In this document: piece after piece, positions 15,675-38,891 of the stretch
How the letters are laid out: every line of letters starts with the position of its first letter
How positions within the stretch are numbered: position 1 is the first letter of the stretch
Assembly: GCA_016176415.1 (NCBI GenBank)
Contig: JACOXH010000017.1
Span: 1 to 57,803 of the forward strand
Direction: 5' to 3'
From: Candidatus Daviesbacteria bacterium
Lineage (GTDB): Bacteria > Patescibacteriota > Microgenomatia > Daviesbacterales > UBA10151
Length of the DNA: 57,803 nucleotides
Position numbers and translations under genes: made by a program
The notes under the pieces: generated by a model
The model's input: only the letters and a program-made list of their open reading frames with translations
Databases searched by the model: none
Told to the model about the DNA's origin: nothing

Positions 15675-15689
15675 TTTTTACTTTCCAAG

Positions 15690-15772
15690 TCCGGAGGGAA
15701 GGATTCGCACCTTCGTAGGGAAAACCCGCCAGATTTACAGTCTGGTGCAATTGACTACTCTGCCACCTCCGG
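15690..15772 (-). tRNA. tRNA-Tyr(GUA), long variable arm
   Basis: Hand fold: acceptor CCGGAGG/CCTCCGG, anticodon stem CCAGA/TCTGG, loop CTGTAAA, T arm GAAGG-TGCGAAT-CCTTC (non-canonical G55). Confidence 0.85.
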
Positions 15773-26549: not shown

Positions 26550-26783
26550 TGCGGATGAGAGGAATCGAACCTCCACGCCTTTCGGCAATAGGTCCTAAGA
26601 CCTTGCAATTTTATAATTGTGCCGGAGAGAGGACTTGAACCTCCATGTCTTTCGACACAGCGCCCTAAACGCTGCGTGTATGCCATTTCACCACTCCGGC
26701 ACTTTAATTGCAAGGTCGCAAGGTCTTGCGAACTTGTGAGCAAGTTCTTAAACCTATCGTGTATACCGTTTCACCACATCCGC
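26550..26783 (-). tRNA. tRNA-Leu(UAA) gene interrupted in the anticodon loop by a 153-nt intervening sequence
   Basis: 5' part GCGGATGTGGTGAAACGGTATACACGATAGGTTTAAG(A) (26746/7-26783) and 3' part (A)CCTATTGCCGAAAGGCGTGGAGGTTCGATTCCTCTCATCCGCA (26550-26592/3). Joined, they give a perfect type II cloverleaf. Confidence 0.7.
26620..26700 (-). tRNA. tRNA-Leu(UAG), nested inside the intervening sequence of tRNA-Leu(UAA)
   Basis: GCCGGAGTGGTGAAATGGCATACACGCAGCGTTTAGGGCGCTGTGTCGAAAGACATGGAGGTTCAAGTCCTCTCTCCGGCA: acceptor GCCGGAG/CTCCGGC, anticodon stem CAGCG/CGCTG, loop TTTAGGG. Confidence 0.9.
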
Positions 26784-31592: not shown

Positions 31593-31677
31593 GCCGAAGT
31601 GGTGGAACAGCAGACACGCAGCCCTCAGAAGGCTGTCCTCAGCAATGGGGGTGGAGGTGCAACTCCTCTCTTCGGCA
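31593..31677 (+). tRNA. tRNA-Leu(CAG)
   Basis: Acceptor GCCGAAG/CTTCGGC, anticodon stem CAGCC/GGCTG, loop CTCAGAA, long variable arm, T arm GGAGG-TGCAACT-CCTCT (G55). Confidence 0.88.
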
Positions 31678-31687
31678 CAGCAAACTA

Positions 31688-31716
31688 TTGACAAAAATAG
31701 ACATTTGTATTTAAAT
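31688..31716 (+). promoter_or_regulatory. putative promoter (TTGACA-17-TTAAAT) abutting the start codon of the next gene
   Basis: TTGACA at 31688-31693, 17-nt spacer, TTAAAT at 31711-31716. ATGs at 31720 and 31726 suggest a leaderless or near-leaderless mRNA. Confidence 0.35.
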
Positions 31717-31719
31717 CAC

Positions 31720-32337
31720 ATGTTAATGAACAGATTATCAGTGGAATTTAGCGCAGAAAGAGATTTAAGTCCTGTTGAGCTTGAAGGTTTAAGAGAAATT
31801 GAAGAAGCAAATGCCCGGATGGTGGGTTATATAGAATGTGAAGCAGTACCGGAAATTTTCACAAATGGTCACGAACCTTTAGGAAGATTAGATTTTGCTC
31901 AAGGCGTTACCTCCGAGTTTATGAGAAAACCTGGTTTTAGGAGATGGAAACTGACTGAAAAACCTCATAAGCATGAGAGCCTGAATCATAATCCAAAGGA
32001 GCGTGCTTTGGTAGAGAAAAGAAGATCTCACAGATTGTATGTTAAACGAATAAACGGTAACAGTGAACCTAAAAGACTACCAAATGTTCCTACATGGAGA
32101 TTTAAAATTCCTAATTTTGATTTGGAAAGTTATAATTTCTTTGAGGATTCAACTCAAGAGCCTACTCTTGACTGGAGAAATCCTGAAAAATGTCTTAGCA
32201 AACTTGAGTCGGAAGGAGAATTGGAAGCTGTGGTAGATTTTACTCCGGATTTAGCTGCAAGAGCAGGAAGAGAGATTGCTTATTTTTCTCAAATTACGCC
32301 GGCTCCTTATCTTCCGCCGCGCCCTCAAAGTATTTAA
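31720..32337 (+). CDS. hypothetical protein
   Basis: The track ORF starts at 31579 but overlaps tRNA-Leu(CAG). The first in-frame ATG after the tRNA and promoter is 31720. Confidence 0.5.
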   Translation: MLMNRLSVEFSAERDLSPVELEGLREIEEANARMVGYIECEAVPEIFTNGHEPLGRLDFAQGVTSEFMRKPGFRRWKLTEKPHKHESLNHNPKERALVEKRRSHRLYVKRINGNSEPKRLPNVPTWRFKIPNFDLESYNFFEDSTQEPTLDWRNPEKCLSKLESEGELEAVVDFTPDLAARAGREIAYFSQITPAPYLPPRPQSI

Positions 32338-32386
32338 TTTACCCTCTTGATTTACTGTTAGTAATTTTGTAGATTACACCTTTCTG

Positions 32387-33688
32387 ATGGATACTGCCGC
32401 CATATCCCAATTTAGGGAATCTGTTTATCAAAACCTTCTTGATTTAATCACCGATACGGGGATCCGCGCTTCAGGCAAAGATGAAATCTATGGGTGTATT
32501 TTTGGAAGAGACAGCGCTTTGACCATACTTAAAATTCTCAAAGTCTATAAAAAGTCTCCTTCTTTAGAGCTGCTTCAAATTTGCAGAAAGGCTTTACTGA
32601 CCCTTTGTGCCTTGCAGGGAAAAGAAACAAATATTGAAAGCGGTGAGCAGCCCGGTAAGTTTATCCATGAATACAGAACAGAAAAACATGAGCATCTGAC
32701 AGGCCTTTCTCGAAAACCATGGTACATTTACCCTGACGGGATTATGAGAAACTATGATTCACTGGACTCTACCCCGCTTGCCCTGATGGCCATTTATAAA
32801 TATTGGGAAGTAACTCAGGACCGTGAATTTTTAATATTAGCTTTGCCTAATGTGGAACAGGGTTTGAATTGGATTATGACCTATGGGGATGCTAACAAAG
32901 ACAGCCTGGTTGATTATCAATTGCATGCAGACAGAAAACATGGAGGGCTGGCAGTGCAATCATGGACAGATTCTCATGAATCATTAAAGGGTGTTAATGG
33001 TTTATTTCCCAAATACCCCATTGCCCCTGTTGAAGTGCAGGGTAAAGCCTGGCTGGCTTTAAAGCTTTGGTCCAAATTTTATGCAGACCGTTCCCCTCAA
33101 TTTGCCAAAAAACTATCTGATCAGGCTAACAGAATGAAATATGTTTTTAATAAATTGTTTATTTTCAAAGAAGATTCTCTATATGAAGACGGAGATTATT
33201 ATTTTGGCGGGCAGGCAATTGACGGAGAAGGCAGACTGATTAAAACAATTACAGCAAACCCTTTAATTTGTTTGTGGGCAGCAGAGAAATCAAAAGATCA
33301 GACAGAATGTATTATTAAGGAAGAATTTTTGGAAGGATTAGTTGCCAGAGCATTTAAGCCTGATTTGTTTGATGAAGGGGCAGGAATCAGAACCATGAGC
33401 GCTTTATCTCCTACTTTTAATCCCAACAAAGATTCATACCACAATGGCAGTTTTTGGCCTATGTTAAACGGTTTAATCACAGAAGGGTTGGAAAACTTTG
33501 GATTTTTGCATGAAGCTGAAAGACTCAAACAGGCTTCTTTAAAACCTTTATTCCACTTTAAAACTCCTGTAGAGTTATATATTAAAGACCACACTGGTAA
33601 TTTTACTGAATATCTTTCTGCCACAGGTCAAACAGGCTGCAGGGTTCAGGCCTGGTCAGCTGCCTCTGTTTTGGATTGGTTAACTTAA
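32387..33688 (+). CDS. amylo-alpha-1,6-glucosidase (glycogen-debranching GDE_C-like, six-hairpin glycosidase)
   Basis: Motifs ...GCIFGRDSA..., ...DSTPL..., ...SWTDS..., ...YHNGSFWP..., ...QAWSAA... are typical of the (alpha/alpha)6 GDE family. Confidence 0.75.
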   Translation: MDTAAISQFRESVYQNLLDLITDTGIRASGKDEIYGCIFGRDSALTILKILKVYKKSPSLELLQICRKALLTLCALQGKETNIESGEQPGKFIHEYRTEKHEHLTGLSRKPWYIYPDGIMRNYDSLDSTPLALMAIYKYWEVTQDREFLILALPNVEQGLNWIMTYGDANKDSLVDYQLHADRKHGGLAVQSWTDSHESLKGVNGLFPKYPIAPVEVQGKAWLALKLWSKFYADRSPQFAKKLSDQANRMKYVFNKLFIFKEDSLYEDGDYYFGGQAIDGEGRLIKTITANPLICLWAAEKSKDQTECIIKEEFLEGLVARAFKPDLFDEGAGIRTMSALSPTFNPNKDSYHNGSFWPMLNGLITEGLENFGFLHEAERLKQASLKPLFHFKTPVELYIKDHTGNFTEYLSATGQTGCRVQAWSAASVLDWLT

Positions 33689-33691
33689 GTT

Positions 33692-33771
33692 CACCTTCCA
33701 GGAGTCCAAGCCCTCCTGGGAGTCATTTAGACTCCCGTTCCTAACGGAACCCTGGGAGGTGTCTGCTTTTT
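33692..33771 (+). terminator. multi-hairpin structure ending in a T-run downstream of the GDE-like gene
   Basis: Outer helix CACCTTCCAGG/CCTGGGAGGTG encloses hairpins GGGAGTC..GACTCCC and CCGTT..AACGG, followed by CTGCTTTTT. Confidence 0.4.
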
Positions 33772-33773
33772 AC

Positions 33774-33864
33774 AGCTCGCAAGAATTACCTAATTCTTTA
33801 GAGCGAAGCTCGCAAGAATTACCTAATTCTTTAGAGCGAAGCTCGCAAGAATTACCTAATTCTT
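33774..33864. repeat. 33-bp tandem repeat x2.76; each unit carries the palindrome AAGAATTACCTAATTCTT
   Basis: Unit AGCTCGCAAGAATTACCTAATTCTTTAGAGCGA repeated exactly at 33774, 33807 and 33840. Lies 49 nt upstream of the GT4 start. Confidence 0.9.
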
Positions 33865-33912
33865 ACTTAAAATTACCATTTCCTCTTATTTCAAAATGCT
33901 ACCATTCGGGTT

Positions 33913-35076
33913 ATGAAAATCCTTCAGGTTGCGCCGGCGTGGGTGAACACTCCACCTAATGATTACGGAGGCACTGAATGGGTAATCGCCAATCTGGTTA
34001 AGGGTCTATCAGAGTTGGGACACGATGTTACTCTCTTTGCCACAGGAAATTCCGGCGCTGACGCTAAAATTGAATATGTTTTTAAAAGACCGCTTCTTGA
34101 ACAGGGCATTGGGTGGGATGCTGCCCTGCCTGCCATGATCCACTATCATCAGGCTTTTCAGTATGCCAAAGATTTTGAGTTTGTTCATGCTCATCTGGCT
34201 TCTGCCACTGATCTAATATTGCTGCCTTTTTTGGCTGATTTAACCGAACAGGGTATTCCTAATTTGCTGACAATACACTCCAGGTGGCCGTTTGACAGAA
34301 GTTCCAATATGGATGAGGTTTTCTTAAACCTGTATGGCAGCAGTATTCTGGCAGTTAATATTTCCGGAGCTATGCATGCTACTCTGCCCAAACAGTTCAG
34401 AGACGGCGGTTTTGTCCACAATAGTCTGGATATTACCAAAATGGAATTTAATCCCAGAGGGGGTAAATATTTTACCTGGCTGGGCCGGATTATTCCGGAG
34501 AAAGGTATTGCAGAAGCGATCAGGATTGCCAAAATGGCCGGAGAACAGTTAATCTTTGCCGGTATAATCGAGCAGCATAATGTACAATCAGTCAGGTACT
34601 GGATACAGCAAGTCAAGCCTTTGATAGACGGTAGCCAAATACAGTATTTAGGACCGGCAGATTTGAAGCTGAAAAATAAACTGCTTGGTGGAGCCAAAGC
34701 CTTTTTAAATCCTTTACAGTGGGAGGAGCCTTTTGGAATGGTGCTGGTAGAGTCTATGGCTTGTGGTACTCCGCTTATTTCTTATAACAGGGGCGCTATC
34801 TCTGAAGTGGTAAAACACGGGGAAAGCGGGTTGCTGGTAAGGAGCAGGAATGAGATGTTCAGATCTTTAGATAAAGTGGGAAAGATCAGCAGGTACAGAT
34901 GCCGGACACATGTTGAAGAGCAATTTTCTCCAAAATCAGCAGCATTAAAGTATGCAAATATCTACCGGAAAGAAGTAAATTTCCACAAAAATATAAATTA
35001 CTCCGAAGCTTTGGAAGCTCCTGTTGCCTTTCCTTCTTCCTTTGCTGCCAAGATTGATCTGACCTCCTTAAACTGA
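33913..35076 (+). CDS. GT-B fold (family 4-like) glycosyltransferase
   Basis: MKILQVAPAW...GGTEWVI... N-terminus and the C-terminal E-x7-E region (...EEPFGMVLVESMACGTPLI...). Confidence 0.85.
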   Translation: MKILQVAPAWVNTPPNDYGGTEWVIANLVKGLSELGHDVTLFATGNSGADAKIEYVFKRPLLEQGIGWDAALPAMIHYHQAFQYAKDFEFVHAHLASATDLILLPFLADLTEQGIPNLLTIHSRWPFDRSSNMDEVFLNLYGSSILAVNISGAMHATLPKQFRDGGFVHNSLDITKMEFNPRGGKYFTWLGRIIPEKGIAEAIRIAKMAGEQLIFAGIIEQHNVQSVRYWIQQVKPLIDGSQIQYLGPADLKLKNKLLGGAKAFLNPLQWEEPFGMVLVESMACGTPLISYNRGAISEVVKHGESGLLVRSRNEMFRSLDKVGKISRYRCRTHVEEQFSPKSAALKYANIYRKEVNFHKNINYSEALEAPVAFPSSFAAKIDLTSLN

Positions 35077-35099
35077 TAAAATACCCAATATCAACACTT

Positions 35100-35184
35100 G
35101 CCGGGGTGGTGGAATAGTAGACACGCAGTCTTGAGGTGGCTGTGCCCTAAAGGCGTGGAGGTGCAATTCCTCTTCCCGGCACCA
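35100..35184 (+). tRNA. tRNA-Leu(GAG), CCA encoded
   Basis: Acceptor GCCGGGG/TCCCGGC, loop TTGAGGT, long variable arm, T arm GGAGG-TGCAATT-CCTCT (G55). Confidence 0.88.
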
Positions 35185-37968: not shown

Positions 37969-38041
37969 GCCGCAATTGCCAACGTGGTCAAGGCGTCCGC
38001 CTGAAGAGCGGATTATCTCAGTCCGATTCTGGGTTGCGGCA
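37969..38041 (+). tRNA. tRNA-Phe(GAA), atypical T-loop
   Basis: Acceptor GCCGCAA/TTGCGGC, anticodon stem TCCGC/GCGGA, loop CTGAAGA, T arm CTCAG-TCCGATT-CTGGG (C at position 55). Confidence 0.75.
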
Positions 38042-38113
38042 CATCTCACTTAGCTCAATAAAATTGAACCCCAGTATGCTATACTAAAATAGTATATATC
38101 GTGGTACATTTAT

Positions 38114-38794
38114 ATGCGTAAAGATCGCCACCTTGCAATACAGCTTCGACGTCAAAAGAAAAGTTATAACGAAATAAGTAATGTATTAGGAGTTCCAAAA
38201 AGTACTTTGCATGTTTGGTTTAAGAATAATCAATGGTCGTTAAAGATTAAAGAGGATTTGACTAAGAAAGCGAGAATCTTAGCTAAACCAAAGCTAAGAC
38301 TGATGGCAATGGCTAACAAGAAAAAATGGGAAAAAATACATACACAATTTCAGGATAAAGCAAAAAAAGAATTCACCTTGCTAATAAAAGATCCTCTATT
38401 TGTAGCTGGTTTAATGCTTTACTGGGGAGAAGGAGATAAGGTTTTAAAAAACTGTTTGGTAAGGTTGAGCAATAGTGACCCAGAATTAATTAAAGTATTT
38501 TATTTATTTCTTAAAAATGTACTGTTAATTTCAAAAGAAAAAATATTTATAAAGCTAATTCTTTATCCTGAGTTAGAAGATCTTGCTTATAAAAAATCCT
38601 GGAGTAATAAATTAAATATTCCGTTATCCCAATTTAAAAAGTCAGCAATCATTTTAGGGAAACATCCAACAAAACGTTTATCTTTAGGTATCTGCTCAAT
38701 TGAAGTTAGTAGTAGAAAGATAAAAGAGAAAATTATTACATGGTTTGCCTTGTATCAAAAATATATTAGTGAAAAGTATATTCATTTGGTATAA
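38114..38794 (+). CDS. HTH + LAGLIDADG-like (homing-endonuclease-like) protein
   Basis: HTH (SYNEISNVLGVPKSTLHVWF) and the motif FVAGLMLYWGEGDK. Paralogous to 24895-25497. Flanked by tRNA-Phe and tRNA-Gly. Confidence 0.5.
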   Translation: MRKDRHLAIQLRRQKKSYNEISNVLGVPKSTLHVWFKNNQWSLKIKEDLTKKARILAKPKLRLMAMANKKKWEKIHTQFQDKAKKEFTLLIKDPLFVAGLMLYWGEGDKVLKNCLVRLSNSDPELIKVFYLFLKNVLLISKEKIFIKLILYPELEDLAYKKSWSNKLNIPLSQFKKSAIILGKHPTKRLSLGICSIEVSSRKIKEKIITWFALYQKYISEKYIHLV

Positions 38795-38816
38795 TTCAGT
38801 CGTTGATCGTTTAGTC

Positions 38817-38891
38817 GCGGGAGTAGTTCAGCAGTAGAATGCGTCATTGCCAATGACGAGGTCGCGGGCGCGCATCCCGTCTCCCGCTCCA
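38817..38891 (+). tRNA. tRNA-Gly(GCC), CCA encoded, non-canonical D and T loops
   Basis: Acceptor GCGGGAG/CTCCCGC, anticodon stem CGTCA/TGACG, loop TTGCCAA, D-loop AGCAGTA (no GG), T arm GCGGG-CGCGCAT-CCCGT. Confidence 0.75.

Follow-up and report, generated by a model that had tools for sequence, protein, structure and literature searches.

Seven of the 36 tRNA genes of an ultra-small groundwater bacterium of the CPR/Patescibacteria carry A at position 18 of the D-loop, and the same seven and no others carry G at position 55 of the T-loop (ARAGORN loop parsing). The chance of such a perfect overlap, seven out of seven among 36 tRNAs, is 1/C(36,7), or about 1e-7. Textbooks present the contact between G18 and pseudouridine 55 as invariant in the tertiary structure of tRNA and treat pseudouridine 55 itself as a universal modification. 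Judged from sequence covariation and gene content, the A18/G55 tRNAs are probably ordinary working tRNAs of translation, in which an alternative tertiary contact would close the elbow.

The tRNA genes of the window

The source genome is a metagenome-assembled bin of 676 kb in 17 contigs, 84% complete, and the window, meaning the whole stretch of DNA analysed (57,803 nucleotides), is its contig 2. tRNA genes were called with ARAGORN and the placement of their loops was checked by Infernal alignment to RF00005. The window holds nine tRNA genes (ARAGORN), four of which combine A18-G19 with G55:

15689..15772, minus strand: tRNA-Tyr(GUA), A18/G55; D-loop AGTAGTCAA (15759-15751), T-loop TGCGAAT (15709-15703); RF00005 56.9 bits
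24780..24854, minus strand: tRNA-Val(GAC), canonical GG/TTC, internal control
26619..26700, minus strand: tRNA-Leu(UAG), canonical GG/TTC, internal control
31593..31678, plus strand: tRNA-Leu(CAG), class II, A18/G55; D-loop AACAGCAG with A18 at 31609, T-loop TGCAACT (31658-31664) with G55 at 31659; ARAGORN, RF00005 47.4 bits
35100..35184, plus strand: tRNA-Leu(GAG), class II, A18/G55; D-loop AATAGTAG with A18 at 35116 and G19 at 35117, T-loop TGCAATT (35162-35168) with G55 at 35163; ARAGORN, RF00005 40.7 bits
35186..35261, plus strand: tRNA-Val(UAC), canonical GG/TTC, internal control, 1 base downstream of the A18/G55 tRNA-Leu(GAG)
37969..38042, plus strand: tRNA-Phe(GAA), G18-G19 kept, C55; T-loop TCCGATT (38022-38028); ARAGORN, Infernal
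38817..38891, plus strand: tRNA-Gly(GCC), A18/G55; D-loop AGCAGTA with A18 at 38833 and G19 at 38834, T-loop CGCGCAT with C54-G55-C56-G57-C58 at 38869-38873; CCA encoded; ARAGORN, RF00005 56.3 bits
39279..39351, plus strand: tRNA-Gln(UUG), canonical GG/TTC, internal control

An earlier, sequence-only reading of the window had described the same four genes as AG with G55, tRNA-Phe as GG with C55, and the Val(GAC), Val(UAC), Gln and Leu(UAG) genes as canonical. ARAGORN and Infernal agree with it on all of these and place the four altered loop pairs identically. It had also cited a tRNA-Leu(UAA), which is not among the ARAGORN calls of the window; the Leu(UAA) gene of the genome, itself canonical, lies on another contig. 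The C55 of tRNA-Phe is a second, uncompensated departure from U55.

The stems of the four A18/G55 tRNAs pair at 7/7 and 5/5 positions with high posterior probabilities, so that no alternative alignment restores G18-G19 and U55. All four exceed the RF00005 threshold of 29 bits (40.7-56.9 bits; the Val tRNAs reach 65-75). They form the cloverleaf, keep G19 and C56 and depart from the consensus at G18 and U55; the loss of these two bases is a departure from the consensus, not from the fold. tRNA-Leu(CAG) failed to pass the fast filters when Infernal searched the entire window but was recovered in a search of its own, and annotation pipelines may therefore under-call such tRNAs. The Gly, Leu(CAG) and Leu(GAG) genes show no differences in contigs from three further groundwater runs; tRNA-Gly(GCC) has the same sequence in runs X2, X3 and X4, and the X4 contig is identical for tRNA-Leu(GAG). 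These are DNA runs; none of the RNA runs contains this stretch.

Between tRNA-Phe and tRNA-Gly (38043-38816) the window has a 681-nt HTH/LAGLIDADG-like gene. In related strains from two groundwater runs only TCAT separates the end of tRNA-Phe (38042) from the start of tRNA-Gly (38817), and the gene is therefore a presence/absence insertion. In contigs from several runs tRNA-Leu(CAG) is likewise followed at once by tRNA-Leu(GAG), with about 3.4 kb (31679-35099) missing, and the genes between the two Leu tRNAs seem to be absent from related strains.

The remaining A18/G55 tRNAs of the genome lie outside the window:

tRNA-His: D-loop AAAAGTA, T-loop AGCGTTA
Elongator tRNA-Met: D-loop AGTCAGTTA, T-loop CGCGCAC
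tRNA-Arg(CCT/CCU): D-loop AGTAGATA, T-loop TGCAATT

Positions 18 and 55 change together

The class sample comprised 461 non-redundant tRNAs from the source genome and 33 relatives, 459 of them with good cloverleaves. In these 459 tRNAs (34 genomes), positions 18-19 and 55-56 read GG/UC in 396, AG/GC in 32, GG/CC in 30 and GA/UU in one; neither AG with U55 nor GG with G55 occurs. The swap is found in 12 tRNA families (Arg CCU, Arg UCG, Cys, Gly CCC, Gly GCC, His, Leu CAG, Leu GAG, elongator Met, initiator Met, Phe and Tyr), each of which has canonical orthologues in sister genomes, implying many independent switches. tRNA-Phe takes all three states, U55, C55 and A18/G55, within a single genus, and among the orthologues of tRNA-Gly(GCC) in relatives AG occurs only with G55. 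Recurrence in the orthologous tRNAs of related genomes had been set beforehand as the result on which the proposal would stand or fall, and the pattern does recur.

The pooled sample of 644 well-folded tRNAs covers relatives, further classes of the CPR, DPANN archaea and a small number of other bacteria. It contains 87 with both A18 and G55, two with A18 and not G55, two with G55 and not A18, and 553 with neither; Fisher p-values take no account of shared ancestry. One of the four mismatches is really G18-C19/U55-G56, one has a poor T-stem and two belong to one unusual array, and at least two of the four are parsing or quality artefacts. An exact-pattern scan covered one genome per prokaryotic species, requiring a Gly-type T-arm with G55 and leaving the D-loop unselected. 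Among the at least 120 matches listed, at least 29 lie in tRNAs, and the D-loop reads AG in 29 of the 29 listed. The hosts of these listed tRNA matches include, within the CPR, Paceibacterota and Jorgensen-, Andersen-, Portnoy-, Kaiser-, Ames-, Levy- and Saccharibacteria, and elsewhere Woesearchaeota (DPANN), a cyanobacterium, a planctomycete, an acidimicrobial MAG and a verrucomicrobial MAG. Short-pattern scans for the G55 T-arm (GCGGGNGCRNNNCCCG in 301 genomes, and a viral scan) are noisy, with matches also in reverse controls and a chance expectation near the size of the match list, and only matches verified by ARAGORN or Infernal were kept.

What happens at the neighbouring positions? The G19:C56 pair is retained in all but one of the 87 A18/G55 tRNAs. 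Among the 89 G55 tRNAs, position 57 is a purine (G in 52, A in 37), position 54 has U in 74 and C in 10 of them, and at position 58 there is A in 76, C in six (Gly and elongator Met) and U in five (His). The combinations at 54/58 are C54/C58 in Gly and elongator Met and A54/U58 in His, some initiators being changed as well, and in the class sample these extra variants occur only alongside G55. Positions 19 and 56 covary as a Watson-Crick pair: A19:U56 replaces G19:C56 in the source genome's own tRNA-Pro(GGG) and in one tmRNA, and the reversed pair, C19:G56, is found in tRNA-Leu(UAA) of one genome (G204). The elbow contact is therefore still under selection. The tRNA-Pro(GGG) gene (contig C15, 4921-4992) has the D-loop AGTGACA (G18 A19) and the T-loop TTTAATT (U55 U56).

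C55 with GG occurs in 34 tRNAs of the pooled sample; in the source genome it is found in tRNA-Phe and tRNA-Cys. A TruB-positive relative (G045) combines C55 with G18-G19 in Arg CCU, Gly GCC, Phe, Thr CGU and Val CAC tRNAs.

The same rule in tmRNA

Several matches of the pattern scan proved to lie in tmRNA, and 37 distinct tmRNA sequences from Patescibacteria were then read; the same swap occurs in them. The T-loop has TGC in 18 of the 37, and the D-loop analogue then reads AG in 18/18 (for example TAGCTTCGAC; the analogue in Escherichia coli tmRNA is UGGAUUCGAC). Another 18 have TTC, with GG in all 18, and the one with TTTAACT has GA. One CPR tmRNA (G124) shows the same A19:U56 covariation as the tRNA-Pro(GGG) of the source genome. 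tmRNA is thus an independent RNA class that obeys the same 18/55 rule.

The tmRNA of the source genome (contig C11, 35491-35902) was missed by ARAGORN -m and scores 94 bits with Infernal. Its T-arm has a 5-bp stem, TCGGC/GCCGA, and a loop of 5 nt, TCACA, in place of 7 nt, and its D-loop analogue, TATTGTCTCGAC, has neither GG nor AG.

A proposed alternative contact at the elbow

The base at position 18 of standard tRNA inserts itself between 57 and 58 and makes contact with position 55 (PMC4810234). Elsewhere, the T-loop motif combines a U:A handle with a UNR or GNR turn, and its intercalating nucleotide is usually G-clamped, the U-clamp seen in tRNA being rarer; the trans Watson-Crick/Hoogsteen pairing of U with A can be replaced by C:A or by C:C, the latter rarely (PMC2615604). 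The T-loops of FMN and cobalamin riboswitches are UGNRA in 88.7% and CGNRA in 10.9% of cases, the intercalating base is A in 99.96%, and U at position 2 sets the T-loop of tRNA apart from this kind (bioRxiv 10.1101/2022.12.26.521914).

The sequence pattern, taken together with this literature, suggests how the elbow of the A18/G55 tRNAs could be built. A18 would take the place of G18, slotted between 57 and 58 and bonding to G55, and the outer face formed by G19:C56 would be unchanged. It is this outer pair on which RNase P, the ribosome and further partners stack. G55-C56-R57 together with A18 would rebuild a YGNRA T-loop with an intercalated adenosine, and the swap would amount to trading a tRNA-type loop/receptor pair for the general type of riboswitches, rRNA and RNase P. 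We infer the hydrogen bonding and intercalation of A18 with G55, as well as the expression and aminoacylation of these tRNAs. G at position 2 and a purine at position 4 are present in all 89 G55 tRNAs, and adenosine fills the position-18 slot in 87 of the 89 and in 18/18 TGC tmRNAs; Gly and elongator Met (C54/C58) and His (A54/U58) fall outside the Y1...A5 rule. The proposal that a correlated 18/55 swap points to an alternative elbow contact gains support from the covariation and from its recurrence in orthologous tRNAs.

A broader proposition, on which our own judgement is evenly divided, is that A18-G55 could be a second general solution for the elbow of tRNA and tmRNA, a riboswitch-type YGNRA T-loop receiving its adenosine from the D-loop. 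In CPR bacteria it would serve essential single-copy tRNAs, initiators among them, as well as tmRNA. Such an elbow would need neither pseudouridine 55 nor T54, and enzymes or nucleases that recognise UUC could not read it. It would have been overlooked because it is absent from model organisms and scores low in gene finders.

Modification enzymes and possible neutral drift

The sequence-only reading had raised possible effects on TruB and TrmA, and this point was borne out in an unexpected manner, since no gene for TruB, a TrmA-type enzyme or TrmFO was found in the source genome or in any of 35 genomes of its family. TruB_N was found in 0/35 family genomes, many of them 95-100% complete, and in the source genome neither the Pfam model nor tblastn with the TruB of relatives finds the gene. 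The count for the domain is 7/24 in other families of the class and 211/301 among the genomes sampled across the phylum. Neither TrmA-type nor TrmFO genes turned up in the source genome or in any of 60 relatives. A tblastn match on contig C15 that had been taken for a TruB remnant is an acylphosphatase domain, which is fused to TruB in one relative.

Complete tRNA sets from the same class contain 7, 3, 2, 4 and 3 G55 tRNAs in TruB-negative genomes and 0, 0 and 0 in TruB-positive ones. Loss of TruB as a precondition of the swap fitted this class (5/5 against 0/3) but is contradicted elsewhere, as A18/G55 tRNAs verified with ARAGORN are present in CPR genomes that have TruB (G082, G070, G165, G061 and G323). 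The five C55 tRNAs of TruB-positive G045 also speak against a strong link to TruB. TruB loss is therefore not required; it may be a facilitator that relaxes constraint. The absence of TruB, TrmA and TrmFO probably relaxes selection on the T-loop, which would also permit C54/C58, A54/U58 and C55.

Could the swap then be neutral compensatory drift? With TruB and TrmA/TrmFO gone, only folding would hold U54 and U55 in place, and the elbow could wander among equally stable states (A18/G55, C55, C54, A54/U58). We regard this as possible, though somewhat doubtful. The absence of the enzymes from the family and relatives, the uneven G55 counts within the class and the confinement of the extra 54/58 variants to G55 tRNAs in the class all fit it. 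However, the comparison of G55 counts rests on eight genomes, few and related, in the phylum sample the excess among TruB-negative genomes is only about twofold as judged by eye, and TruB-positive CPR genomes from other classes also have A18/G55 tRNAs and tmRNAs. Moreover, the one-step intermediates, A18/U55 and G18/G55, are absent from the class set, and the path is therefore not simply neutral. AT mutation pressure was ruled out as a cause, as the change from U55 to G opposes it.

Arrays on viral and putatively mobile DNA

A Lacunisphaera MAG contig (DASYDH010000050.1, 152-160 kb; array L368) has some 18 tRNA genes packed into 6 kb, nearly all of them A18/G55 with CCA encoded. A Ro60/TROVE-vWA gene is interleaved, and HNH endonuclease and sigma-70 genes adjoin; the array resembles a spare set of tRNAs of mobile or phage origin. 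Viral contigs also carry many A18/G55 tRNAs, and on two contigs from IMG/VR every tRNA found is of this kind (18/18 in L587, 7/7 in L551).

These arrays bear on another possible cause, namely selection against the UUC T-loop, by which G55 tRNAs would putatively escape Cash (CRISPR-associated Schlafen) or other toxins that act on the T-loop. Cash cuts tRNAs 5' of U55 at UUC, and a single substitution of U54 or U55 abolishes cleavage (PMC13462974). The all-or-none pattern of the three arrays looks selected. In the source genome, by contrast, only 7/36 tRNAs are changed, which would leave the bulk of translation unprotected. Nuclease escape fits the all-G55 phage arrays better than it fits the source genome, and as a general account it is unlikely.

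Use in translation

The reading of the A18/G55 tRNAs as working translational tRNAs draws on the gene content of eight full tRNA sets (the source genome and seven relatives). In all eight each anticodon is served by a single gene, except that CAU has just two, the initiator and the elongator, and the A18/G55 genes are for this reason the sole tRNAs for a number of amino acids. In the source genome (84% complete) this applies to Tyr, His and elongator Met, and in relatives to Cys (G007, G046), Phe (G046), His (G023, G049) and initiator Met (G046, G049), sole status being firm only in the relatives that are 95-100% complete. Being sole isoacceptors, the A18/G55 tRNAs would have to serve in translation. 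The source genome also has a tRNA-Ile(UAU) gene (contig C11, 17768-17841), which, with the two CAU genes, suggests that AUA is read without a lysidine-modified CAU tRNA.

A search for fem-like transferases, advised by the sequence-only reading, found two FemAB-family (PF02388) genes in the source genome (contig C16, 2665-3657, 94 bits; contig C12, 75365-76294, 73 bits). FemAB-family proteins are aminoacyl-tRNA-dependent transferases of peptidoglycan bridges. Aminoacyl-tRNA-dependent wall synthesis may thus take place in this organism, presumably without a dedicated tRNA. In staphylococci, the non-proteinogenic (NP) tRNA-Gly species NP1-3 are extra copies that have lost G18, G19 and U55 and are kept out of translation (PMC13443448). 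Are the A18/G55 tRNAs likewise set aside for Fem-type bridges? The two transferase genes and the shared loss of G18 and U55 (PMC13443448) would agree with such a role, which had been offered speculatively for tRNA-Gly(GCC), but it is highly improbable and the link to staphylococci does not hold. tRNA-Gly(GCC) is a single gene, with no canonical twin, in the source genome and in G007, G046 and G049, and sole Tyr, His, elongator Met, Cys, Phe and initiator tRNAs are swapped too. Its anticodon loop, TTGCCAA, is a normal 7-mer, and its T-stem, GCGGG/CCCGT, is the same as in canonical orthologues, so that no weakening of the predicted EF-Tu determinants is evident. G19:C56 is retained, whereas the NP tRNAs lose G19 together with G18.

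That the swap reflects misalignment, assembly error or decaying pseudogenes is scarcely credible, even for a bin 84% complete whose A18/G55 tRNAs score 40-57 bits in RF00005 against 65-75 for the Val tRNAs, as two programs agree on the loops, the stems are all intact, independent runs give identical sequence, and the swap and its covariation are conserved over dozens of independently assembled genomes and also in tmRNA.

Significance

No description of A18/G55 tRNAs, in CPR or elsewhere, was found in the open-access literature, where an earlier description is nonetheless possible. If the preferred reading of a working tRNA with an alternative elbow contact is correct, these genes offer a clean natural covariation from G:U to A:G in sole tRNAs, initiator tRNA and tmRNA. 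The 18/55 contact would be replaceable, some cells would translate with many tRNAs unable to carry pseudouridine 55, and tRNA would be tied to the general T-loop/receptor rules known from riboswitches. The swap would also provide a ready design for tRNAs that may go unrecognised by enzymes or nucleases reading the T-loop, and it raises a testable question, what TruB and TrmA contribute beyond their chemistry, as whole families live without both. For annotation, A18/G55 tRNAs score 10-30 bits lower, and with the loss to filters this means that tRNA and tmRNA counts for CPR, DPANN and phages may be too low.

Comparison with known systems

With the canonical elbow (RF00005; PMC4810234, PMC7912444) the A18/G55 tRNAs share the cloverleaf, the 7-nt T-loop, G53:C61, G19:C56, purine 57, pyrimidine 60, class I and class II forms and full anticodon sets. 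They differ in having A/G in place of G/U at 18/55, and G at position 55 makes pseudouridine 55 impossible. In Gly, elongator Met, His and some initiators, positions 54/58 are C/C, A/U or C/A where the canonical elbow has U/A.

The G-clamped YGNRA T-loop is similar, apart from the Gly, elongator Met and His forms, in its order of bases, Y-G-N-R-A followed by two bulged bases, in the adenosine that covaries as its partner, in tolerating C at position 1 and in the Watson-Crick pairing of position 3 with the receptor. Here, however, the receptor is the D-loop and not a T-loop receptor, and the likeness is one of sequence pattern. Published tRNA has U at position 2, whereas these tRNAs and tmRNAs use the G form.

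The staphylococcal NP tRNA-Gly resembles them in the loss of G18 and U55 and in a genome that encodes Fem-type transferases. It differs in its shortened anticodon loop, weak EF-Tu determinants and extra copies (PMC13443448); the A18/G55 tRNAs, in contrast, are single-copy, keep G19:C56 and are the sole tRNAs for several amino acids.

The arrays L368, L551 and L587 show the same matched swap to A18/G55, and positions 19 and 56 often covary in them as well. They are extra, mobile sets, whereas the A18/G55 tRNAs of the source genome are scattered core chromosomal genes and sole decoders, and the tmRNAs of Patescibacteria carry the swap too.
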